From a virus (taxonomy: Duplodnaviria > Heunggongvirae > Uroviricota > Caudoviricetes): a DNA stretch of 9,856 nt. Both the position numbers and the translations under genes were made by a program. This document shows positions 1 to 9,856 of the stretch, one piece after another. Numbering within the stretch: the first letter of the stretch is position 1; every line of letters starts with the position of its first letter. The notes under the pieces are model-generated. The model ran no database searches. It was given only the letters and a program-made list of their open reading frames with translations, and was not told where the DNA came from. The DNA lies in IMG/VR virus record IMGVR_UViG_2698536570_000006, positions 1 to 9,856 of that record; one strand, written 5' to 3'.

Positions 1-1086
<1,086 letters not shown>

Positions 1087-1499
1087 CTAACGTCAGAAAA
1101 GAGAGCATATACATCAATCCAAAGTGATGATGGATGAACATCCCGGTTTCTTCCACCATCACACCGGAAAAGCGACTATGAGGGTAACCCTGCGTCTGTC
1201 AGCACAGTAAAACCCGGTGTGCATCGTTTTTGATTATTCCCGCACACTCACGCATAAGGAATTCCCCGTCGGGCTACGGTCATGGTTAATGCGGGAATAC
1301 GGCGACGATACAGCGCAGCTAAAAGGGTAATAGACGGATAGACCGGTTTATTTCATTCCACAGGATTCTGAGTGTCCCCAACTTCCTCCAATAGTCTGAG
1401 CGTACACCTATATAGTTTTAATTTTCATCAATCCATTTAACTATCGTTTAATTGTTGTCACATAGGATTCTGCCATTTTTAACAATGCAGGATAATAAG

Positions 1500-1793
1500 A
1501 TGAAAAAAATGTTGTTTTCTGCCGCTCTGGCAATGCTTATTACAGGATGTGCTCAACAGACGTTTACTGTTGGAAACAAACCGACAGCAGTAACACCAAA
1601 GGAAACCATCACCCATCACTTCTTCGTTTCGGGAATTGGACAGGAGAAAACTGTTGATGCAGCCAAAATTTGTGGCGGCGCAGAAAATGTTGTTAAAACA
1701 GAAACCCAGCAAACATTCGTAAATGGATTGCTCGGTTTTATTACTTTAGGCATTTATACTCCGCTGGAAGCGCGTGTGTATTGCTCACAATAA
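1500..1793 (+). CDS. borD: Bor-family outer-membrane lipoprotein (serum-resistance, lysogenic conversion), 97 aa
   Basis: MKKMLFSAALAMLITGC lipobox followed by AQQTFTV...ETITHHFFVSGIGQEKTVDAAKICGGAENVVKTETQQTFVNGLLGFITLGIYTPLEARVYCSQ, near-identical to lambda Bor as I recall it. ATG at 1500 is preceded by AGGATAA. The track's upstream extension to 1452 is rejected. Confidence 0.9.
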   Translation: MKKMLFSAALAMLITGCAQQTFTVGNKPTAVTPKETITHHFFVSGIGQEKTVDAAKICGGAENVVKTETQQTFVNGLLGFITLGIYTPLEARVYCSQ

Positions 1794-1803
1794 TTGCATG
1801 AGT

Positions 1804-1821
1804 TGCCCATCGATATGGGCA
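1804..1821. terminator. Short hairpin between convergent bor and rzpD (TGCCCAT-cgat-ATGGGCA)
   Basis: 7-bp inverted repeat with 4-nt loop, seen directly, in the 31-bp gap between bor stop (1791-1793) and Rz stop (1825-1827). No clear U-tract on either side, so function as a bidirectional terminator is a guess. Confidence 0.3.
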
Positions 1822-1824
1822 GCT

Positions 1825-2286
1825 CTATCTGCACTGCTCATTAATATACTTCTGGGTTCCTTCCAGTTGTTTTTGCATAGTGATCAGCCTCTCTCTGAGG
1901 GTGAAATAATCCCGTTCAGCGGTGTCTGCCAGTCGGGGGGAGGCTGCATTATCCACGCCGGAGGCGGTGGTGGCTTCACGCACTGACTGACAGACTGCTT
2001 TGATGTGCAACCGACGACGACCAGCGGCAACATCATCACGCAGAGCATCATTTTCAGCTTTCGCATCAGCTAACTCCTTCGTGTATTTTGCATCGAGCGC
2101 AGCAACATCACGCTGACGCATCTGCATGTCAGTAATTGCCGCGTTCGCCAGCTTCAGTTCTCTGGCATTTTTGTCGCGCTGGGCTTTGTAGGTAATGGCG
2201 TTATCACGGTAATGATTAACAGCCCATGACAGGCCGACGATGATGCAGATAACCAGAGCGGAGATAATCGCGGTTACTCTGTTCAT
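1825..2286 (-). CDS. rzpD: Rz i-spanin (inner-membrane spanin subunit), 153 aa
   Basis: [22 protein letters not shown]-terminal TMD, then a coiled-coil-rich periplasmic domain ending ...[11 protein letters not shown] at 2286 overlaps the endolysin stop (ATGA). The upstream in-frame extension to 2298 is rejected. Confidence 0.88.
1884..2066 (-). CDS. rzoD: Rz1 o-spanin lipoprotein, 60 aa, embedded in another frame within rzpD
   Basis: [20 protein letters not shown] lipobox then the proline-rich [19 protein letters not shown], lying wholly inside the Rz ORF: the classic embedded Rz/Rz1 arrangement. Confidence 0.85.
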
Positions 2287-2780
2287 TGCTGACCCCACAA
2301 ACAGATTTCACGCTCAATCTCACGACGAGTCATGAGACCTTTCCATTGCTTACCGCCAGCATATGTCCAGCGACGTAGCTGATCACATGCGCCTTTGATA
2401 TCGCCCTGGTTTATTTTGCGAAGAAGCGTCGATGTTCTGAAATTGCCAGCACCCACGTTGTAAACGAATGAGTAAAGAGCGCCGCGCATTGTTTCCGGTA
2501 TATCGACTTTGATGTACGGGTTAATTTGTCTGGCGACCGTGGCAAGGTCTTTATTCAGGAGGGCTTTGCATTCTGCTTTGGTATACGTTTTACCGAGCAT
2601 GATGTCTTTTCCTGTATGCCCGTGACATACAGTCCATACACCAACAATATCTTTGTATGGTATGTAGCTGACACCTTCCAGACCATCGTTACCACTTGGG
2701 CCAGTAATTAACACTGATGCTATAGCAATTGCTCCGCCACCAATAGCAGCAGCAACGGCTTTTCGTAATGATGGAGGCAT
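2283..2780 (-). CDS. rrrD: SAR (signal-anchor-release) endolysin, T4-lysozyme-type muramidase, 165 aa
   Basis: Gly/Ala-rich weakly hydrophobic N-terminus ([20 protein letters not shown]) typical of a SAR domain, followed by a lysozyme core (...[16 protein letters not shown]...); matches K-12 RrrD/phage 21 R as recalled. ATG at 2780 overlaps the holin stop (TAATG). Confidence 0.9.
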
Positions 2781-2995
2781 TATTCACCTCTCGCAGCCTT
2801 GCGCTTATCTTCTTTAATCTTGAAATAAAGGTTTGTCAGGTACGTCAGCAGGCCAAATACCAGGCTACCCAGCACACCTATTGCTGCCCACTGTGAGGGC
2901 GTGACTTTATCGAGCAGCTGTAAAAACCAGTAACCGGCACTACCTGCTGAGGTGCCATAGGCGACACCCGTTGTTAACTTATCCATGGATTTCAT
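2780..2995 (-). CDS. essD: Class II pinholin (S21-like) with dual-start MKSM motif, 71 aa (68-aa form from Met4)
   Basis: [71 protein letters not shown]: two TMDs and a charged C-terminus, S21-like. GAGGTGGGG RBS upstream of ATG at 2995. The track's 86-aa extension to 3040 is rejected. Confidence 0.88.
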
Positions 2996-3040
2996 AACCC
3001 CACCTCGCAGACAAAGCGGGTGTAAATTGAGGGAATACAA

Positions 3041-3584
3041 CGTATCGCAAAAAAGCAGAAACGTAACAGACTCGGAGTCAGTGAATAACTCAGGTATTGA
3101 GTTATCAGCTAATATCGAGACTCAAAAAATGGAAAAACCAGCTCGACGGCGGGTTTAAGCTGTGTGACGAAGTAACCACTCTTAACAGCATAACCAATTT
3201 TTTACGTACGTAAACCACTGAATGATATTTATGAGAATGCTACCGAGTGTTCAAAACACCACCACAAATACATAAGAAAACCTCAACAAATAACCAACAA
3301 ATAATTTCCAGTGTTATTTTTAGCCGATTTAAATTGAACCTTCAAATTATAGAGCACTTATAAATAACAGCTGTTAATATAAATTGGCTAATAGATTTAT
3401 TTTTATTCAGCCAAGAGCTATGAATAGGATTCGATAGAAAAAAGTTCAGATAAAAATAGAGATCTACTTCACAAATCAAACGAGAAACCAAAACTTACAT
3501 CTTGAAATAATCACATTGATTAGATGAATATTTATCGCGCAGTGACATCATTTTTTAATAATAGTTCAAAAAAAAGGGCTCACG
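3041..3584. promoter_or_regulatory. Long AT-rich intergenic region upstream of the porin gene, divergent from the holin start; presumed porin promoter and regulatory region
   Basis: About 540 bp with no ORF of note. Contains a 12-bp palindrome TTACGTACGTAA (3202-3213), a tandem direct repeat CAACAAATAA-c-CAACAAATAA (3284-3304), and an AAGGG RBS before the porin ATG. No promoter hexamers could be assigned confidently by eye. Confidence 0.4.
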
Positions 3585-4682
3585 ATGAAAAAATTAACAG
3601 TGGCAATTTCTGCTGTAGCTGCATCAGTACTGATGGCGATGTCTGCTCAGGCAGCTGAAATTTATAATAAAGACAGTAACAAGCTGGATCTGTACGGGAA
3701 AGTTAATGCCAAGCACTACTTCTCCTCTAATGATGCAGATGATGGTGATACTACTTATGCCCGTCTTGGCTTCAAAGGTGAAACCCAAATCAACGATCAA
3801 CTGACTGGTTTCGGTCAGTGGGAATATGAATTCAAAGGCAACCGCGCTGAATCTCAAGGTTCCTCCAAAGACAAAACCCGTCTTGCATTTGCAGGCCTGA
3901 AATTCGGTGACTACGGCTCAATCGATTACGGCCGTAACTACGGTGTAGCATACGACATCGGTGCGTGGACTGACGTTCTGCCAGAATTCGGTGGCGATAC
4001 CTGGACCCAAACAGATGTGTTCATGACTGGTCGCACCACTGGTGTTGCAACCTATCGTAACAACGACTTCTTTGGTCTGGTTGATGGTCTGAACTTTGCT
4101 GCTCAGTACCAAGGCAAAAACGATCGTAGCGATTTCGATAACTACACTGAAGGTAACGGTGATGGCTTCGGTTTCTCTGCTACCTATGAATACGAAGGAT
4201 TCGGTATCGGTGCAACTTATGCGAAATCTGATCGTACCGACACTCAAGTTAATGCAGGGAAAGTTCTTCCTGAAGTATTTGCTTCCGGTAAAAATGCAGA
4301 AGTTTGGGCCGCAGGTCTGAAATATGACGCTAACAACATTTACCTGGCCACTACCTATTCTGAAACCCAGAATATGACTGTATTTGCTGATCACTTCGTT
4401 GCTAATAAAGCCCAAAACTTCGAAGCTGTTGCACAATATCAGTTCGATTTCGGTCTGCGTCCGTCCGTTGCTTACCTGCAATCTAAAGGTAAAGATCTTG
4501 GAGTATGGGGCGATCAGGACTTAGTCAAATATGTTGATGTAGGTGCAACCTATTACTTCAACAAAAATATGTCTACTTTCGTTGATTACAAAATCAACCT
4601 GCTTGACAAAAATGACTTCACTAAAGCACTCGGTGTAAGCACTGATGACATCGTTGCTGTAGGTCTGGTTTACCAGTTCTAA
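3585..4682 (+). CDS. nmpC: General-diffusion outer-membrane porin of the OmpC/OmpF/PhoE family (NmpC/Lc-type prophage porin), 365 aa, apparently intact
   Basis: Signal peptide [23 protein letters not shown] then AEIYNK. Porin hallmarks are [64 protein letters not shown] and the C-terminal VGLVYQF with terminal Phe. It is encoded opposite to the flanking Q and lysis genes, as in DLP12/PA-2. Confidence 0.9.
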
Positions 4683-4707
4683 TCTGATTACGAAAAAGAT
4701 ATGTTGC

Positions 4708-4724
4708 GGGAGGCGTTGCCTCCC
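4708..4724 (-). terminator. Hairpin GGGAGGC-gtt-GCCTCCC followed on the minus strand by a CTTTTT tract about 10 nt away; candidate early terminator or late-leader structure
   Basis: Perfect 7-bp GC-rich stem seen directly. The U-tract is displaced from the stem, so terminator function is uncertain. Confidence 0.3.
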
Positions 4725-4820
4725 CAACATATAAGTGGCTCCCTCAAGCCACTTCCTTTAGAAGCACAACCTTGCTTCTAACTATATAAACCTTCTGTTA
4801 TATATTACCCTTTATTTTTG

Positions 4821-4855
4821 GGGGCGTCTCAACGCCCCATTTTTAATAATTTTTA
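4821..4855 (+). terminator. Rho-independent terminator (GGGGCGT-ctca-ACGCCCC then ATTTTTAATAATTTTT), probably ending the porin transcript
   Basis: 7-bp GC-rich stem, 4-nt loop, immediate T-run on the plus strand, about 140 nt after the porin stop. It also lies just downstream of the Q stop on the other strand. Confidence 0.6.
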
Positions 4856-4871
4856 GTAAACAATTGGCATA

Positions 4872-5255
4872 TTAATTAGAGTTATTAACAACGATATCCA
4901 TCTCTAACCGGATATCTAATGCCATTAACATCCCTTCAATTATGCCCTCAGCCTTCTGTAACCTTTTCCCGATATAACCATCAGAGCAGCAATGCTTACC
5001 TGCCAGTGACATGAATGTCATACCGACTACATAATAATCTACTAATAAATCGTGCAAATCGCTGTTGTTCTTTTTCAGACGGGCCATGCACCCGCAAATG
5101 ATCATCGCGTCATCGTCACAACATTGCGGGCGAGATTTTACTTTTGAAGGAATTAATCCCTTAAAACCGGCGGCAATGGACGACCAGGTCACATCTTCAT
5201 GATTATTAGCCGCCCACGCTCCCCAACGCTCAAGAACCATCTGAATATCACGCAT
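4872..5255 (-). CDS. quuD: Q-like late-gene antiterminator, 127 aa
   Basis: [60 protein letters not shown]..., matching K-12 QuuD as recalled; Cys-rich, suggesting a zinc-binding motif. ATG at 5255 has GGAG 9 nt upstream. The track's TTG-initiated extension to 5270 is rejected. Confidence 0.85.
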
Positions 5256-5340
5256 CAACTTACTCCACAAAAATCAGACCAGAACGCCAATCACAAGCAA
5301 AAATCAACAAAACAGTATTAGTTGATTGTTATCTCTGACT

Positions 5341-5481
5341 TCATACTCCTGCTCCTGTCAGGGTTTTGGCGTAATTCTTCAGTATTCGGTAATCGGTCAA
5401 AACAGAACCGGGGAAACGATATAAGCGCAGATGCCCCCAGCGGTGGCGAAGAAGTTCTGCCATATAAAACTCAAACATCAT
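5341..5481 (-). CDS. ylcG: YlcG-like small protein, 46 aa; absent from the supplied ORF track
   Basis: Found by hand translation of the minus strand: ATGATGTTTGAG... gives [46 protein letters not shown] then stop. The start overlaps the rusA stop and the product matches DLP12 YlcG as recalled. Confidence 0.7.
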
Positions 5482-5840
5482 TCATTCCCCATTTCGGTGA
5501 TGGTCAGTTCCAGCCTCCCACCTTTGGTAACAGGCATCTTCACAACGCGGTAATCAACGACCTGAGCATCATCCAGCCAGAAACCTGCTTTAGTGAGTGC
5601 GTCAAAAGCGGCTTTTTGCAGATTATCCAGGTCACGGCGACGGCGATCCGGCATGTGGCACTCAATGCGGATTTTCACAGGCATAGCCAGGCCGATATCC
5701 AGCATTGCGTTTTTAATGATTCGGGCGACGTTATCGCGGTATGCCTGCCCCTCTGCGCTGATGTGCGTGCGCCCGCGATTATGGCGGTAATAGCGATTAT
5801 TGCTCGGAGGCCAGGGTAATGTGATGCTGTAGGTATTCAC
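5478..5840 (-). CDS. rusA: RusA Holliday-junction resolvase, 120 aa
   Basis: [120 protein letters not shown], essentially K-12 RusA. GTG start at 5840 overlaps the ybcO stop (GTGA). Confidence 0.95.
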
Positions 5841-6127
5841 GCCTTAATAACCCCCTCTTTCAGCCAGATAACCTGTGTTCTCGCCATACCTTCCAGCGCG
5901 CATTCTTTTGCATATGCAGCATCGACAAAATGTGTGCGGCGGTCGATTTCGTCGTGGCAGGCAGAACATGCAATGGTGGCAATCAGGTCTGGCGGTTTGA
6001 TACCGGTACCGCACAATCCAGCCAGCCGGATATGTGCCAGTACAGACGTTTCAGGGTTGCCATTACATACGCCAGGGATTCTTACCTGGCATTCCCGACC
6101 ACGCGCTGCTTTTCTCAAATCAGCCAT
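5837..6127 (-). CDS. ybcO: YbcO-like Cys-rich nin-region protein (DUF1364-type, putative metal-dependent nuclease), 96 aa
   Basis: [64 protein letters not shown]... with GGAGG RBS upstream of ATG at 6127; matches K-12 YbcO as recalled. The track's longer form from 6166 is rejected. Confidence 0.85.
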
Positions 6128-6290
6128 GACTCCTCCTTGCTGCCAGTCGCAACCATTTTTTATCAACCAAGCTGGCGGTATATCCGAGCAGTGTTGGTAT
6201 TTCGGATGGCTTCAGCTCAGGTTTACGCTTACGACGATTTGGTACTCTGTAGATGTGTCCGTTCATGACACGAATAAGCGGTGTAGCCAT
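6120..6290 (-). CDS. ninE: NinE-family protein, 56 aa
   Basis: [65 protein letters not shown]; ATG at 6290 overlaps the ybcN stop (TAATG). The track's longer form from 6353 is rejected. Confidence 0.85.
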   Translation of the reverse strand: MATPLIRVMNGHIYRVPNRRKRKPELKPSEIPTLLGYTASLVDKKWLRLAARRSHG

Positions 6291-6745
6291 TACGCCTCCT
6301 GCTTGTCGCGCAGCAGCTGAAACTCGCAGCTCTGTGGAATAGTCAGGTGGCAACCAATATTCATCGCCCAGGCTTCAACCTTACACAGGAAGACATACAT
6401 CTCTCCGGTATCAAGATCGGAGGTATGGCGTAACGACTGGATAGTGGTGATATCACCGGTTACGACATCAACCAGGTCTTTGGTTTCATAACCGAGATAT
6501 GTGTGTTTGAGAGCATCTTTTACCCAAGCTGGAGTAGCGAACGTTTTACCCTTGCTGATGAGGTATTCACTGATTTCGCTGTACCACATGTGGCTGAGTG
6601 CATTCTGGGAAAGACTGCGTCTCTCGCGCCACGGTTTAAGCACCATGCGAAAGCATTTGCCGTCCTCCAGATAAGGCTGGATCTGCCGACCGATAGCGGT
6701 GAAGTTACCGCGATGCAATTTGATACCATCTTGTGGGAGGTTCAC
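6290..6745 (-). CDS. ybcN: YbcN-like nin-region protein (DNA base-flipping protein family), 151 aa
   Basis: [62 protein letters not shown]... matches DLP12 YbcN as recalled. The start at 6745 is GTG with GGAG upstream; the exact start is uncertain. Confidence 0.82.
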
Positions 6746-6864
6746 GCTTCATCTCCGCAGAGATCAAACGCTGGATGCAAAATATCGCAGGTGCATTTCT
6801 GCATCTGTGAATGGAGAAGAGAGGTTGGATTGTATGTGCGCATAAACGTCCCCGTTTAGCGCAG

Positions 6865-6897
6865 AAGTCACCGGAGGAGTTCAAACTCCGGTGACTT
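6865..6897. repeat. Perfect 12-bp inverted repeat AAGTCACCGGAG-n9-CTCCGGTGACTT between the HNH gene stop and the ybcN start
   Basis: Seen directly: GC-rich 12-bp arms with a 9-nt spacer, 41 bp downstream of the HNH-protein stop. No adjacent U-tract on either strand, so it is not a canonical intrinsic terminator. Could be an RNA structure, a factor-dependent terminator or a protein-binding palindrome. Confidence 0.6.
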
Positions 6898-6937
6898 AAT
6901 TATGGCAAGTTGATTGTTGAAAATCAATTTAGTGGAT

Positions 6938-7720
6938 TTAGGCGCAATACAAAGGATCATTAGCAGCTCTAATACCGCCCTGAATCGCAAGCCCTGTATG
7001 GCAATTTGACATTGAGCATGATTGCCATCTGTGCAAGGGACCTCCATTAATCGAAACTTCCAGCAGATCTTTATCTCCTTTCATCCTGACCCCTTCATAC
7101 AACATATCAAGACGCTCAACAATCAATCCTGTTGGAGGTTCCATTTTTAGAACGAGGGCAAACTCTCCTGGCCCACGTCGTATTGTTATACGCGGGCCGG
7201 TACACTCCATATCCCAATTGTCTGATTTAGCTTTCCATTCATTTTCATCTATCAGTAAAGTCTCCTTACCAATAGAATTACAGAAAATTCCTGATAAAAG
7301 CATCGGTCCATGTGGTATGGGTGAAGGTTTCACAGAAAGAATGGGTTGTTCGTTGACTACAATCAAATTTTGACAGTTATGAAACGTCACTCCTGCAAAT
7401 TTTACTGTTATAGGCTCATTATGAAAATCAAACATTTCATTTGCAAAACCAGCCTGTAAGCACTTGGGATTTCTGTCAGCTATTTCCACTGTCTGTGCTG
7501 AAAGTCTACCACGAGCTCTTTTTTGATTGCATTGGGAGCAAAGAAGTGTCATTCCATTCGGATCATGTATTTTGGCATCAACGAAGTCAGGTTTAAAATG
7601 CTCATAATCATAAAATCCAAATCCACAAATTACACAGCCAAAGCCGCACCTTTGCCTTATCTGACGTTTTATTGTCTCAGGTATTCTTCTTGAGAGCCCG
7701 TGTTTATTAATATTGTCCAT
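6938..7720 (-). CDS. Uncharacterised 260-aa protein with an N-terminal HNH-type (zinc-finger) nuclease motif and an about 190-aa C-terminal domain of unknown function
   Basis: Residues about 25-68 read CGFGCVICGFGFYDYEHFKPDFVDAKIHDPNGMTLLCSQCNQKRA, fitting the HNH pattern CxxC...(D/E)H...P...N..LLC..C(N/H)..K. I recognise no family for the remainder. AT-rich coding sequence, weak RBS, ATG at 7720. Confidence 0.7.
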   Translation of the reverse strand: MDNINKHGLSRRIPETIKRQIRQRCGFGCVICGFGFYDYEHFKPDFVDAKIHDPNGMTLLCSQCNQKRARGRLSAQTVEIADRNPKCLQAGFANEMFDFHNEPITVKFAGVTFHNCQNLIVVNEQPILSVKPSPIPHGPMLLSGIFCNSIGKETLLIDENEWKAKSDNWDMECTGPRITIRRGPGEFALVLKMEPPTGLIVERLDMLYEGVRMKGDKDLLEVSINGGPLHRWQSCSMSNCHTGLAIQGGIRAANDPLYCA

Positions 7721-7734
7721 ATGGTTAGTACGCT

Positions 7735-7776
7735 ATAAGTTTGTTTCTATAATTTTACCACAATAGATAAGTTTGT
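7735..7776. repeat. Two exact copies of ATAAGTTTGT (7735-7744 and 7767-7776) spaced 32 bp apart, immediately upstream of the HNH gene start
   Basis: Seen directly in the 5' leader or promoter region of the HNH gene. Spacing of about three helical turns suggests a paired operator or iteron, but this is inference. Confidence 0.5.
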
Positions 7777-7850
7777 ATCAGAAATCGCTATATGGAGTGA
7801 GCGGAATATTTATATTATTCATACAATTGCTCTCCCGTACGCAGCCCGCA

Positions 7851-7876
7851 CTTCCGTCATCGCAGAATGACGGAAG
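7851..7876. repeat. Perfect 10-bp inverted repeat CTTCCGTCAT-cgcaga-ATGACGGAAG between the 107-aa ORF and the HNH gene
   Basis: Seen directly; 19 bp downstream of the 107-aa ORF stop (7895) on the minus strand. No U-tract. Candidate transcript-end structure or regulator-binding palindrome. Confidence 0.6.
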
Positions 7877-7894
7877 CCTTACTAACTAGCGCCT

Positions 7895-8218
7895 TTATTG
7901 AAACAGATTCTGAGGTAAATGCGGCAATACTCGACTCCACTTATCATCCTGCCACGGCTGAAGTTTTACATGTGCCGTTTCTCGGGCGAGGATTGCTCGC
8001 GCTCTGTTGAGTATCTGGGGATATTCTTGCTCGATGGAAGTGAAGTGACCAGCCTCACCATGCTCCGCATCCTGAAGAAGATGAGTAACGTTCTGGTAGG
8101 CAATTAACATCACATTCCCTGCTCGCCATAACCAGGCGAGTGTGCAAAGTTCGTTATCAGTGAATTGTTTTGTGATTGGGAATTGTTGAACTGCTAGAAC
8201 GAGAACGCCAGCATCCAT
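7895..8218 (-). CDS. Hypothetical protein, 107 aa, no recognisable family
   Basis: ORF MDAGVLVLAVQQFPITKQFTDNELCTLAWLWRAGNVMLIAYQNVTHLLQDAEHGEAGHF... with GGGA 6 nt upstream of ATG at 8218. Same strand as its neighbours and protein-like composition, but the coding status is unproven; an antisense 62-aa ORF also exists. Confidence 0.4.
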   Translation of the reverse strand: MDAGVLVLAVQQFPITKQFTDNELCTLAWLWRAGNVMLIAYQNVTHLLQDAEHGEAGHFTSIEQEYPQILNRARAILARETAHVKLQPWQDDKWSRVLPHLPQNLFQ

Positions 8219-8329
8219 TGGCAGTCCCTATAGTAAAACCATAGCTCAGGACGCTTCGTTCAGGATAGATACTTTTATTGTACTTACCTAACTTTCTTAC
8301 TATAGCACGGTTGAAAAAGTGATTATTAC

Positions 8330-9856
8330 TCAAAAATAAACCTCACCATCAACCATATATTTGAGAGTACTTATCGCCTGCTGGGCGGATATTGTTTTCA
8401 TTAAAGGATAGTGTTTAAAAACAATGCCATTCATAAAATAGATATCACAGGTTTTATTATCTGTATTGATTATGATTTTTTCGAATGTTTTATAGGCAAG
8501 TGTACGACATAGCTCTCGCCCATTTTTACTGGTTAAGTCAATAGCATGAAAATCACCAAGTGAACTCACCGCTTTACTCTTCAAAGTTTTTAATGATACC
8601 GAAGCCCTTCGTAATTCCTTATCTAATACTCTGATTTTTTCTGCTATAGCGGTAACTTCAGGCGCGACAGACAATGCAACGATTAAATTATTAATTTTCA
8701 TCTGAAGCTCAATAATTTTTAACTCTAAAGTTTCATTAGCATCTTTCTTGTTTTCAACTGGTTGAATTTTGCCACAATTAAAAAGCAATTCATTAATGAT
8801 ATTATAATCAACCAAATCTCTTTTTATTGATGGCCTGTCACATCGATGTAATCTTCTCATCGGACAAACATAATAGCCATGCAAACTTCCAGATACCGCA
8901 TGAACAATCATGGTATTACCACAAGCCTCACACTTCATAACTGTTCGAAGTAGATTTATTAGCATAGGATTCTTGCTACTATTGCTAATACCAAAAGGTG
9001 CCAACCGAATTTCCTGTACAGCGTAAAACAAATCATCTGATATGACTCTGGGATAATAGCCAGCGATTTCACTTATCCCTTTCCCTCTTGCACGATATGA
9101 AGGTACGCATATACCTATCAGAGCTTTATTCGCTAATAATTTTTCAATTACAGAAGGCCCCCATGCACTTTCTTTTCCTGAGAAATTCTTTACAGCATGA
9201 TCATTTAAATACTTGGCTATTGCATTCAATGAGCGCCTTTCCATCCTGAGTTTAAAAATTAGCTCAATAGTTTTCACCCTGTCGGGGTCTGGAACAAAGG
9301 CCGTTCTTTTGTCATCTAAGGAGAGCCATCTCGGACAAGACGCCGTCATAATCGTACCTGATTCCAGTGCATCCTGCCGTTTTTTCTTCCATGATAATTT
9401 AACCCGACTTGACTTTATCTCGCTTTCTTCATTTGCCCTTTGTGCTATAAGTATGGCTTTTATTAATGAATATGGCTCATTCAAAGAGTCAATATTATAG
9501 ACTGTATTGTCGCAAAGAGTTATAACATCAATACCGTGATTCAAAATCAATTTCAGACGTTCAATCGCTTCACCGACTTTTTCTCTTGAAAGTCTGTCCA
9601 GACTTTCAACTAACAATGTAGTTCCTGGCAATATATAACCATGCTCTATAGCATCTAAAAATTCCGAAAAAGCTCCTGATTGTGCATGCTTTCCTTTGAA
9701 TGCACTTAATCCTAAATCTTCATATGTTATGGTATCAAGATAATAATCACTATTTACCTTTAACCATTCAGCAATAAGTCTTCTCTGTCGGTTTAATGAG
9801 TCGCCAGACATCTGACCTGGTGATGAAAATCGCATATATGCTATGGCTTTTTTCAT
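8330..9856 (-). CDS. ybcK: Large serine recombinase (YbcK-like): resolvase-type catalytic domain, recombinase domain, Cys-rich zinc-ribbon-like segment and predicted C-terminal coiled coil; 508 aa
   Basis: N-terminal AIAYMRFSSPGQ...SLNRQ...TLLVESLDRLSR fits the serine-recombinase catalytic motifs (YxRVS..Q, SLxRQ, DRLxR). CEACGNTMIV...YYVCPMRRLHRCD is a candidate zinc ribbon; the C-terminal region is Leu/Ile/Lys/Glu-rich. The ATG sits exactly at the window end (9856), so the promoter and anything upstream are not visible. About 35% GC. Confidence 0.85.
   Translation of the reverse strand: MKKAIAYMRFSSPGQMSGDSLNRQRRLIAEWLKVNSDYYLDTITYEDLGLSAFKGKHAQSGAFSEFLDAIEHGYILPGTTLLVESLDRLSREKVGEAIERLKLILNHGIDVITLCDNTVYNIDSLNEPYSLIKAILIAQRANEESEIKSSRVKLSWKKKRQDALESGTIMTASCPRWLSLDDKRTAFVPDPDRVKTIELIFKLRMERRSLNAIAKYLNDHAVKNFSGKESAWGPSVIEKLLANKALIGICVPSYRARGKGISEIAGYYPRVISDDLFYAVQEIRLAPFGISNSSKNPMLINLLRTVMKCEACGNTMIVHAVSGSLHGYYVCPMRRLHRCDRPSIKRDLVDYNIINELLFNCGKIQPVENKKDANETLELKIIELQMKINNLIVALSVAPEVTAIAEKIRVLDKELRRASVSLKTLKSKAVSSLGDFHAIDLTSKNGRELCRTLAYKTFEKIIINTDNKTCDIYFMNGIVFKHYPLMKTISAQQAISTLKYMVDGEVYF

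Follow-up and report, generated by a model that had tools for sequence, protein, structure and literature searches.

The gene at the end of the window, by which we mean the whole 9,856-nucleotide stretch analyzed here (positions 1 to 9,856 of the IMG/VR record IMGVR_UViG_2698536570_000006), is ybcK of the DLP12/Perceval-type lambdoid phages, and the present finding therefore re-identifies a gene that is already annotated. We consider it probable that ybcK encodes an intact large serine recombinase (LSR), that the gene is a single-gene accessory module of the early-right region (ren to nin) in these phages, and that the enzyme is active but an orphan. The comparative results suggest that YbcK is probably a working enzyme that is kept for the phage's own reasons and not a relic, an integrase or a device for capturing cargo.

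The gene at the window end is ybcK and is under purifying selection

The coding sequence occupies positions 8330..9856 of the minus strand as a single open reading frame of 508 codons plus a stop, and it was assigned from its translation, its Pfam domains and the ybcK annotation of identical genomes. Its ATG (9854-9856) is formed by the final bases of the window, as the initial annotation had pointed out, and its stop codon lies at 8330-8332. The DNA of the reading frame is 100% identical to annotated ybcK in six E. coli genomes. The comparison with the ybcK and emrE region of K-12 that had been proposed earlier gave 98.4% nucleotide identity, with emrE nearby; the K-12 counterpart is the same 508-aa gene, the "putative recombinase" (b0544) of the cryptic prophage DLP12. 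To our knowledge, YbcK is the sole LSR of E. coli K-12.

A quarter of the complete E. coli genomes (1424/5426) carry ybcK, near full length in 1398 of them, and 58/59 copies that were extracted are intact. The gene is also present, at ~98% amino acid identity, in 12 sequenced lambdoid phage genomes, among them that of Perceval, which makes virions (PMC9928086). Across 38 unique alleles with dS up to 0.19, the median dN/dS is 0.06, which indicates that the YbcK protein is under selection, and this purifying selection is strong.

YbcK has the domains and the predicted fold of a large serine recombinase

The initial annotation had described the product as a large serine recombinase with zinc-ribbon and coiled-coil segments, and Pfam, an AlphaFold2 (AF2) model and Foldseek all bear this description out. 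Three Pfam domains score above their gathering cut-offs, all encoded on the minus strand: (i) an N-terminal catalytic (Resolvase) domain at aa 4-161 (9374..9847; PF00239, E 8e-19), with the long E helix at aa 128-166 in the AF2 secondary structure, (ii) a Recombinase domain (RD) at aa 191-284 (9005..9286; PF07508, E 2e-14) and (iii) a zinc-ribbon domain (ZD) at aa 302-357 (8786..8953; PF13408, Zn_ribbon_recom, E 8e-8) that contains Cys309, Cys312, Cys331 and Cys339. As profiles, the catalytic domain aligned with the catalytic domains of TP901-1, PhiC31 and gamma-delta, and the RD with that of the SPbeta and A118 integrases. In the AF2 model (mean pLDDT 85), a pair of long antiparallel helices (368-397 and 401-430) makes a coiled-coil hairpin at about aa 366-430 (8567..8761, minus strand), and the A118 and SPbeta integrases have their coiled coils at the aligned position. 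Beyond the coiled coil, the chain forms a small alpha/beta C-terminal subdomain and comes back to the zinc-ribbon domain; this segment, aa 444-507 (8336..8527, minus strand), is modelled with a pLDDT of 85-95 and aligned with C-terminal strands of the A118 integrase. The top Foldseek matches of the model were the full-length SPbeta, PhiC31, Bxb1 and A118 serine integrases (E 9e-19 to 2e-10). PHROG 2371 spans aa 348-508. A Pfam search at E <= 0.1 gave no match of YbcK to DUF4368, no PADLOC family matched YbcK or three downstream proteins at E <= 0.01, and an Rfam search and a single-sequence PDB search of YbcK were likewise without a match.

The catalytic motifs from which the initial annotation had argued are retained. 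The predicted nucleophile, Ser11 (codon 9824..9826, minus strand), stands in the motif Y7-x-R9-x-S11-x3-Q15, and the active-site residues Asp87, Arg88 and Arg91 stand in ESLDRLSR (codons 84-91; 9583..9606, minus strand), a motif that is present in 27/27 loci checked. Conservation was read from three alignments, of 100 sequences (A2), 22 enterobacterial homologues (A3) and 12 sequences (A4). Arg9, Asp87, Arg88 and Arg91 are invariant in all three. Ser11, which aligned with the serine of YtRvST in the TP901-1 integrase, is invariant in A3 and A4 and conserved at a level of at least 90% in A2, and the same holds for the four zinc cysteines. Overall, Y7, R9, S11, Q15, D47, S51, D87, R88 and R91 are each either invariant or at least 90% conserved. 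At the position equivalent to Arg45 of gamma-delta, YbcK has Ser60; many homologues have Arg there, and Ec03 likewise is without an Arg45-equivalent residue. We count Ser60 as a point against the explanation that we favor.

At the protein level, YbcK shows all the features of an LSR, and it is from conservation alone that we infer recombinase activity. By analogy with other LSRs, a YbcK dimer would bind each of two sites of ~40-50 bp through the RD and ZD, the coiled coils would mediate synapsis, and Ser11 would cut at a central dinucleotide, the strands then being exchanged by subunit rotation.

ybcK is welded to emrE while the downstream genes shuffle

ybcK is internal to the prophage and lies between ren/emrE and the nin genes. 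Among 80 related loci, 78 reach far enough upstream to display the left side, which is the same (ren-emrE-ylcJ-ybcK) in 76 of them; ren was detected in 77/80. The linkage between emrE and ybcK is kept in every locus of sufficient upstream reach, so that no E. coli copy was seen in another context among the 80. To the right, the stretch from ybcK to ylcH/ybcN is variable, with cargo of at least 10 length classes. When AW1.7, K-12, Perceval and 12 cargo representatives were compared pairwise by blastn, the breakpoints proved nested and heterogeneous, at +40, +285 and ~+420 bp after the ybcK stop, and IS-sized insertions are present. The first ~40 bp past the stop (8290..8329, minus strand) are common to all cargo types, and the K-12-type cargo (ybcL/ybcM) diverges here. 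The variable block of the window (6928..8289, minus strand) holds a 107-aa ORF (7895-8218), which has the P22AR C-terminal domain only, and a 260-aa ORF of unknown function (6938-7720); other phages have ybcL/ybcM, an alpha/beta hydrolase or other genes in this slot. Homology among all cargo types restarts at position 6927, just upstream of ylcH-ybcN. ybcK is thus tied firmly to emrE, and it is the downstream genes that are reshuffled.

K-12 and the window are alike in that emrE-ylcJ-ybcK lies upstream of ylcH-ybcN-ninE-ybcO-rusA-quuD. They differ in the downstream cargo (the P22AR-C ORF and the 260-aa ORF in the window, ybcL/ybcM in K-12), in the site of the prophage (a remnant at lambda attB, between ybhB and ybhC, in the window; DLP12 at argU in K-12) and in the porin gene, which is intact in the window and broken by IS5 in K-12. 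The host prophage in the window is heavily degraded.

The GC content of the window is 0.36 at ybcK versus 0.46 in the flanks, and two genomes have the arrangement emrE-terminator-hydrolase-ylcH, from which ybcK is absent. ybcK thus has the atypical composition and the differently filled slot that mark a moron. The gene is oriented as the early-right operon, a terminator hairpin of emrE lies upstream of it, and a Rho-dependent terminator has been reported in its 5' UTR (PMC4150792). Given this orientation and the intrinsic and Rho-dependent terminators upstream, ybcK is probably silent in the lysogen; it would be made only after induction, by antiterminated early read-through. In the interval from the emrE terminator to the ybcK ATG, a pattern scan, which is weak evidence, picked up nothing promoter-like.

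Recombination sites around ybcK

The presence of YbcK had been taken as a sign of a nested mobile element that could have delivered the adjacent cargo. In that case, YbcK would serve as integrase or transposase for a small element, consisting of ybcK alone or together with emrE and the downstream cargo, that inserted in the nin region and brought the cargo along. The low GC of ybcK and its position at the edge of the variable block are in line with this proposal, but the left side of ybcK is fixed, in the 76 of 78 loci noted above, and the cargo changes at several nested, type-dependent breakpoints that offer no single common site. The unbroken linkage of emrE and ybcK also argues against such an element. 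YbcK probably did not bring the neighboring cargo.

Sequence beyond base 9856, where repeats and att-like sites were to be sought, was read in a 100%-identical genome (L001), and 4.2 kb were scanned. The ybcK flanks contain no inverted repeats, attP-like 18-nt arms or central-dinucleotide dyads above chance: the best dyads scored 13/22 and 11/22 versus shuffle means of 12.6 and 11.8, in a scan that would miss weakly symmetric or distant sites, and known attPs, which served as positive controls, were detected with scores of 13-17. This result, too, speaks against a nested element. A 24-bp perfect palindrome inside ybcK (9586-9609) was dropped as a candidate site because its synonymous positions are not preserved in 24 homologues.

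Only one direct repeat was found. In Perceval-type phages, copies of 38 bp of the emrE 3' end flank a 2.07-kb ylcJ-ybcK segment to the left and right, and the "empty" post-emrE junction reconstructed from them is matched exactly in two genomes, as a nested element would predict. However, the right-hand copy lies inside a P22AR-C ORF that is truncated in the Perceval-type phages and stands intact in the window, so that the Perceval-type junction is secondary and absent from the window; for the same reason, the two genomes were ruled out as attB. In addition, the core of the repeat consists of at least 15 identical bases, whereas LSR sites need only a common dinucleotide, and phage-phage recombination explains the junction more simply. 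A search for an empty site between ren and ybcN gave only two deletion derivatives. Homologues flanked by partial gene duplications (L092, L090 and L115; see below) are a further point for a nested element, which we nevertheless regard as unlikely.

Homologues of YbcK recur as single-gene modules

Homologues at 40-83% identity recur as single-gene modules, mostly of low GC, in prophage moron hot spots, and full-length homologues at 40-61% identity occur in at least 8 genera; phmmer marker-gene annotation labelled only a minority of the contig loci. Their surroundings range from tail-fibre ends and nin regions to plasmids and an island. Several homologues are placed after a tail-fibre assembly gene, and some are the last gene at the end of a prophage or island, beside ssrA, glmY, lepA or norR. 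Homologues of this terminal type occur in Atlantibacter (DHIB01000016), Erwinia (JAGGMP010000001), Ewingella (JALCNN010000002) and Citrobacter (CDHL01000051). In about half of 20 loci compared, GC is 10-15 points under that of the flanks. A homologue at 61% identity had no megablast match in complete E. coli genomes. A pairing of the LSR with a hydrolase was considered and rejected, as the hydrolases of Perceval and of an Enterobacter plasmid are merely 30% identical over 86 aa.

When related LSRs stand in unrelated contexts, they have in common nothing but the gene, ~60-220 bp upstream and 0-400 bp downstream. Four such pairs are 83-97% identical, and their similarity is confined to the gene and short flanks. 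The edges vary by pair (left -67, -61, -120 and -220; right 0, +55 and +400), the boundary is at or within ~60 bp of a stop codon in most pairs compared, and neither a motif common to the ends nor a terminal inverted repeat was found at the module edges of these pairs. The four pairs, the varied contexts and the anomalous GC could suggest that the LSR and its short flanks are an autonomous element that moves itself among phages, plasmids and islands, with its att hidden in the ~60 bp upstream and in the 3' end of the gene. We consider this unlikely: an element with ends of its own is hard to reconcile with edges that differ from pair to pair, lie mostly near stop codons and lack a common motif, E. 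coli ybcK was never outside the emrE context in the loci examined despite a dS of 0.19, and junctions at gene boundaries are ordinarily put down to phage mosaicism.

In four loci, including L092, L090 and L115, the LSR is flanked by partial duplicates of a neighboring gene, which could be the scar of site-specific insertion rather than of ordinary mosaicism. We count these duplicates, together with the homologues at prophage or island ends, against the accessory-module explanation. It is conceivable, though we give it a low probability, that the YbcK family is a distinct functional class of LSR, made up of orphan single-gene modules that strong purifying selection maintains in temperate phages, plasmids and islands; its members might be self-mobile or might join mobile elements to one another. 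If this class does join phage to phage or phage to plasmid, the flanking partial gene duplications would be explained. Several hosts of these modules were seen to have a tyrosine integrase of their own.

YbcK is not the integrase of its prophage

YbcK is, as the initial annotation held, a second recombinase within a lambdoid prophage. DLP12 of K-12 is located at argU and has intD, the AW1.7 copy is in a prophage between ybhB and ybhC (lambda attB) with the remnant of a tyrosine integrase, and Perceval carries its own Int and Xis. Prophages with near-identical ybcK genes thus occupy both argU and lambda attB, sites that match the respective tyrosine integrases. With an internal gene, differing sites and a tyrosine integrase or its remnant in each host, YbcK is not the prophage's integrase.

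It might still be a second, alternative integrase that inserts the phage as a whole at a secondary site of the bacterium, with an attP elsewhere in the phage. The predicted integrase of cluster1000 (41% identity) and the characterized Ec03 (33%) have typical attP inverted repeats, several homologues are terminal in their prophage, and purifying selection acts on ybcK in viable phages. The end-placed homologues could be true integrases, in which case the word "accessory" may fail for the family as a whole. The prophage sites of ybcK itself are accounted for by the tyrosine integrases, and no attP-like dyad was seen near ybcK in the scan. The only att pair predicted for a close homologue (cluster10915, 66% identity) shares its 26-bp core in the 3' end of what we take to be glmY, a small RNA gene, and tyrosine integrases usually show this pattern. 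We therefore hold a second integrase to be quite improbable.

A role other than recombination, for example in regulation through DNA binding, in exclusion or defence, or in the stress tolerance of the lysogen, seems very unlikely. Over-expression of ybcK in BL21(DE3) changed sabinene tolerance by +128%, and a knockout lowered tolerance (PMC7181518). SIR2 and NACHT genes are neighbors at some homologue hot spots, where defence and conversion genes gather, and Ser60 in place of Arg45 would also suit such a role. Yet the nucleophilic Ser, the three Arg/Asp active-site residues and the zinc ligands are retained by at least 90% of homologues, or by all of them, which is expected only if catalysis matters, PADLOC gave no match, and the sabinene phenotype is one of over-expression and comes without a mechanism. 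Hardly credible, finally, are a decaying functionless relic, which the degraded prophage of the window might suggest but which dN/dS and the 1398 near-full-length copies among 1424 genomes contradict, and a DNA invertase that flips an adjacent segment, for which one could cite the small serine invertases beside tail-fibre genes in Mu, P1 and e14 and the several homologues after a tail-fibre assembly gene, but around 20 family loci neither inverted repeats of >=25 bp (-6 to +4 kb) nor an inversion was found, and none of 13 cargo representatives occurred in both orientations.

Comparison with known systems

The small invertases (Hin, Gin, Cin and Pin) are proteins of ~190 aa with a C-terminal HTH and an invertible segment, whereas YbcK has 508 aa with an RD and a ZD. 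The TnpX/TndX-type transposases (Tn4451 and Tn5397) and the multi-targeting DUF4368 clade are LSRs that move small elements and not whole phages, and a TnpX fragment is a weak profile match to YbcK (E 0.001-0.01). Unlike these, YbcK has no DUF4368 match, a single context among the E. coli copies examined and no defined element ends. The integrases of SPbeta (SprA/YokA), A118/LI, PhiC31 and Bxb1 have the catalytic domain, RD, zinc ribbon and coiled coil of YbcK, with profile E values of 4e-27 for SPbeta and 6e-18 for A118, although the identity of solved integrases to YbcK is only 14-19%. Each of them is the sole integrase of its phage, with an adjoining attP and a known directionality factor, none of which was seen for YbcK.

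The moron concept of Juhala and Hendrix describes accessory modules that sit between conserved phage genes and that, in the classic cases, come with a promoter and a terminator of their own and are active in the lysogen. Like lambdoid morons, ybcK is a discrete low-GC module that is present in some phages and absent from close relatives, and modules of its type share hot spots, behind ren or behind the tail-fibre genes, with other accessory genes and have boundaries mostly at or near gene ends. It differs from the classic morons in that no promoter-like site was found, transcription is terminated upstream, and the product is a recombinase and not a host-fitness factor.

The E. coli LSRs Ec03 and Ec04 are 33% and 29% identical to YbcK (E 2e-50 and 3e-58), have the same domain order and share with it a clade-specific N-terminus, Y-x-R-x-S-S ... 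D-S-x-R-R-Q. The supplements of Durrant et al. 2022 (PMC10083194) list both as experimentally characterized integrases and, for Ec03, give landing-pad integration reads in human cells. Ec03 and Ec04 have defined attP/attB pairs and are located at the edge of their mobile element, whereas YbcK is internal to a phage with its own integrase. Finding the sites of YbcK would explain why phages that bear an integrase pay for a second recombinase, and it would add one more orthogonal integrase from the clade that gave genome-engineering tools such as Ec03.

YbcK is a full-length large serine recombinase

The sole ORF at window positions 8330-9856 (minus strand) comprises 508 codons, with its stop at 8330-8332 and its ATG formed by the window's final three bases. 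Pfam assigns it, above curated cut-offs, a Resolvase domain (aa 4-161), a Recombinase domain (aa 191-284) and a Zn_ribbon_recom domain (aa 302-357), and PHROGs groups it with integrases (E 6e-120). An AlphaFold2 model built from 100 homologues (mean pLDDT 85) has an alpha/beta catalytic domain that includes a long E helix, followed by the recombinase domain and zinc ribbon, a two-helix coiled-coil hairpin (aa 368-430) and a short C-terminal alpha/beta segment. The top Foldseek matches of this model are the full-length serine integrases of SPbeta, PhiC31, Bxb1 and A118, and the family profile matches the integrases of SPbeta (E 4e-27) and A118 (E 6e-18). Because these analyses agree, the initial annotation of a large serine recombinase (LSR) with a zinc ribbon and a coiled coil is accurate.

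The gene is already known, and the novelty of this locus is low: six E. coli genomes have an identical DNA sequence annotated as ybcK, and the suggested comparison with K-12 ybcK identified the same gene (98.4% DNA identity). Of 5426 complete E. coli genomes, 1424 carry ybcK, nearly always at full length; it also occurs in 12 sequenced lambdoid phages (~98% aa identity), including Perceval, an active prophage of strain LF82 that makes virions (PMC9928086). In AW1.7, a genome that carries the identical DNA, the corresponding prophage is DLP12-like and heavily degraded; it occupies the lambda attachment region, between ybhB and ybhC, and terminates with IS3 and a truncated tyrosine integrase. 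K-12 DLP12, in contrast, lies at argU with intD. YbcK is not the integrase of the prophage. The window's own prophage is reduced to a stump (window 1-1793; 9700-26200 of L001, the locus from an identical genome) in which head and tail genes are absent. Window 1-1068 is a tail-fibre pseudogene with GC up to 0.65, iss/bor lies at 1500-1793, and a very AT-rich stretch (3200-3600, GC 0.29) lies upstream of an intact NmpC/OmpC-like porin gene (3585-4682, plus strand, 365 aa) whose K-12 copy is interrupted by IS5.

In an alignment of 100 sequences, Q15, R23, Q24, D47, S51, E84, D87, R88, R91 and R140 are invariant, and conservation is 90% or higher at Y7, R9, S11, C309, C312, C331 and C339; Y7, R9, S11 and the four zinc-ribbon cysteines are invariant among 22 enterobacterial homologues. 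S11 falls on the catalytic serine of TP901-1 integrase in an HMM alignment. The catalytic motifs noted initially are kept, with S11, R9, R88 and R91 conserved across the aligned homologues. Ser60 occupies the position of the "RP" arginine (gamma-delta Arg45), which is Arg in many homologues, not all. Pairwise comparison of 38 unique alleles from E. coli and IMG/VR gives a median dN/dS of 0.06 (dS up to 0.19). Of 59 copies extracted, 58 are intact, and full-length homologues of 40-61% identity were found in Atlantibacter, Yersinia, Erwinia, Pantoea, Ewingella, Citrobacter, Kluyvera and others. Active-site conservation, low dN/dS, intact copies and full-length homologues thus argue that YbcK is selected for its catalytic function and is not a relic.

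Cargo breakpoints beside ybcK do not coincide

The initial annotation had proposed a nested mobile element whose recombinase could have delivered the adjacent cargo, the variable genes between the ybcK stop and ylcH-ybcN. We examined 80 IMG/VR ybcK loci, 78 of which extend far enough upstream; 76 of these 78 have the same left side (ren, emrE, the small ylcJ ORF and then ybcK), and 77 of all 80 have a recognizable ren. Between the ybcK stop and the conserved ylcH-ybcN block lie 741 to 3854 bp, with at least 10 different lengths. When one representative per length class was compared, only ~40 bp past the stop were common to all cargo types, a further 245 bp to most non-K-12 types and ~420 bp to several; an IS-sized insertion of 1333 bp is present in two types, at differing positions, and all matches had the same orientation, with no inverted cargo among these representatives. 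Since the lengths shared after the stop differ between cargo types, the breakpoints are nested and heterogeneous, like ordinary lambdoid mosaicism, and do not converge on one recombination site. With breakpoints that do not coincide and no att-like site above chance, cargo delivery by ybcK is not borne out, and we found no positive evidence that ybcK moved the neighbouring genes.

In the window, the cargo includes a 260-aa ORF (6938-7720, minus strand) with no Pfam family, assigned to PHROG 6544 (unknown function), with only weak HNH-endonuclease similarity (E 6e-4) and a 16/22 dyad near 7434. A 107-aa ORF (7895-8218, minus strand) consists of the P22 antirepressor C-terminal domain (P22AR-C) alone.

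In Perceval-type phages, 38 bp of the emrE 3' end are repeated where the alpha/beta hydrolase cargo starts, and direct repeats therefore flank their 2.07-kb ylcJ-ybcK segment. The reconstructed "empty" junction was found in one piece, at 98.3-98.5% identity, in two genomes, in prophages with different immunity regions. We rejected a reading of these as attL, attR and attB because the right repeat lies inside the P22AR-C ORF, truncated in Perceval and intact in the window, and because of the short GTCAC microhomology at the joint and the shared core of at least 15 bp. More simply, the Perceval-type junction may have arisen by recombination between a phage carrying emrE-ybcK and one carrying emrE-hydrolase. 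The two E. coli prophages with the "empty" junction (L096 and L097, both 5857-7742) have the order ren-emrE-terminator-alpha/beta hydrolase-ylcH-ybcN and no ybcK; on this reading they show only that emrE can occur without ybcK, and that their otherwise constant link is not obligatory.

Search for recombination sites

Using the sequence past base 9856 taken from the identical genome, we found in the ybcK flanks no attP-like inverted repeat, no long inverted repeat and no dyads beyond chance level; the repeats or att-like sites that the initial annotation had suggested looking for there did not exceed chance. The same scripts detected the literature attP sites of related LSRs as positive controls.

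Within ybcK, a perfect 24-bp palindrome, TTGAAAGTCTG-GA-CAGACTTTCAA (window 9586-9609), spans the VESLDRLS codons and is rarer than expected from shuffles. It was rejected as a site, as synonymous positions in 24 homologues do not preserve it, and it probably reflects chance or codon bias. K-12 (L003, ~7626-7690) has a perfect inverted repeat of 13 nt, AAAATACGTGACA ... TGTCACGTATTTT, 197 bp past the ybcK stop in K-12-specific cargo upstream of ybcL; the window lacks this repeat. In the Ewingella homologues the shared module starts exactly at the palindrome TTGTTCACAWWATGAACA, ~60 bp before the start codon (L091 9937-9955; L102 and L103 about 9935-9955), a possible operator or promoter element.

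Contexts of the wider YbcK family

The contexts of ~30 YbcK homologues fall into three groups. The first occupies a ybcK-like place between the replication and nin/Q genes of lambdoid prophages (Pantoea L088, with a tyrosine integrase at the prophage end; L092, L093, L100, L115). In the second, the LSR is the last gene at the prophage end, after a tail-fibre assembly gene (Atlantibacter L084, adjoining ssrA; Erwinia L089, adjoining lepA; Ewingella L091, adjoining an aldehyde dehydrogenase; L086, L102-L104, L109); these terminal homologues may be genuine integrases. Both locations are classic moron hot spots of lambdoid phages. The third comprises plasmids and islands (L090, L107, L110, L178, L179). 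On the Pantoea plasmid L179, an 8-kb island (469-8521) has a YbcK-like recombinase at one end and a tyrosine integrase at the other; it adjoins norR and encloses a RelA/SpoT-domain protein, a NACHT protein and an HTH regulator.

Where two LSRs of 83-97% identity sit in unrelated contexts, the sequence they share is limited to the gene with 60-220 bp before it and 0-400 bp after it. For most pairs the module edge lies at a stop codon or within ~60 bp of one, and no common terminal motif was found at the edges of the pairs compared. In about half of 20 loci the LSR gene is 10-15 GC points under its flanks; in a few it is GC-richer.

In four family members the LSR lies between partial copies of a neighbouring gene; these members include the unrelated loci L092 (5' end of DUF1367, 9623-9851 and 12609-12831), L090 (pilV-like gene, 8986-9332 and 12943-13291) and L115 (replication gene P and pseudo-P, about 9250-9700 and 12150-12870). 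The duplicates could be either mosaic scars or traces of LSR-mediated site-specific joining. Only the pattern across the wider family, not the window locus, might repay experiments.

Family genes often adjoin SOS-type accessory genes, namely DinI, UmuC/UmuD-like polymerase subunits and SRAP peptidase (L092 12094-12327; L093 2182-2415; L100 about 11970-12310; L101 8932-9738 and 11607-12869; L102 8597-9862; L104 9107-9742), possibly merely through shared hot-spot residency.

Expression and related recombinases

An intrinsic terminator lies past emrE, upstream of ybcK, and work on K-12 has established a Rho- and NusG-dependent terminator within the ybcK 5' untranslated region (PMC4150792). A pattern scan, which is weak evidence, found no promoter-like site between the emrE terminator and the ybcK ATG, and ybcK is oriented like the early-right operon. 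Given these features, ybcK would be silent in the lysogen and made by antiterminated read-through after induction. Over-expressed ybcK raises sabinene tolerance by a mechanism not given (PMC7181518), and no other ybcK phenotype turned up in the literature searched. The best-supported reading is that YbcK is an active, selected, orphan LSR carried as an accessory module.

Cluster10915, an LSR 66% identical to YbcK, has predicted attB and attP sites with a 26-bp core in common (Durrant et al. 2022, PMC10083194). This core falls on the 3' end of a small RNA gene that we take to be glmY, a pattern usual for tyrosine integrases. Cluster1000, a phage LSR 41% identical to YbcK, has an attP that is a typical inverted repeat (Durrant et al. 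2022, PMC10083194). The experimentally characterized E. coli enzymes Ec03 and Ec04 from the same study are 33% and 29% identical to YbcK. Like YbcK, Ec03 lacks the Arg45 equivalent, and landing-pad integration reads are reported for it in human cells (Durrant et al. 2022, PMC10083194).
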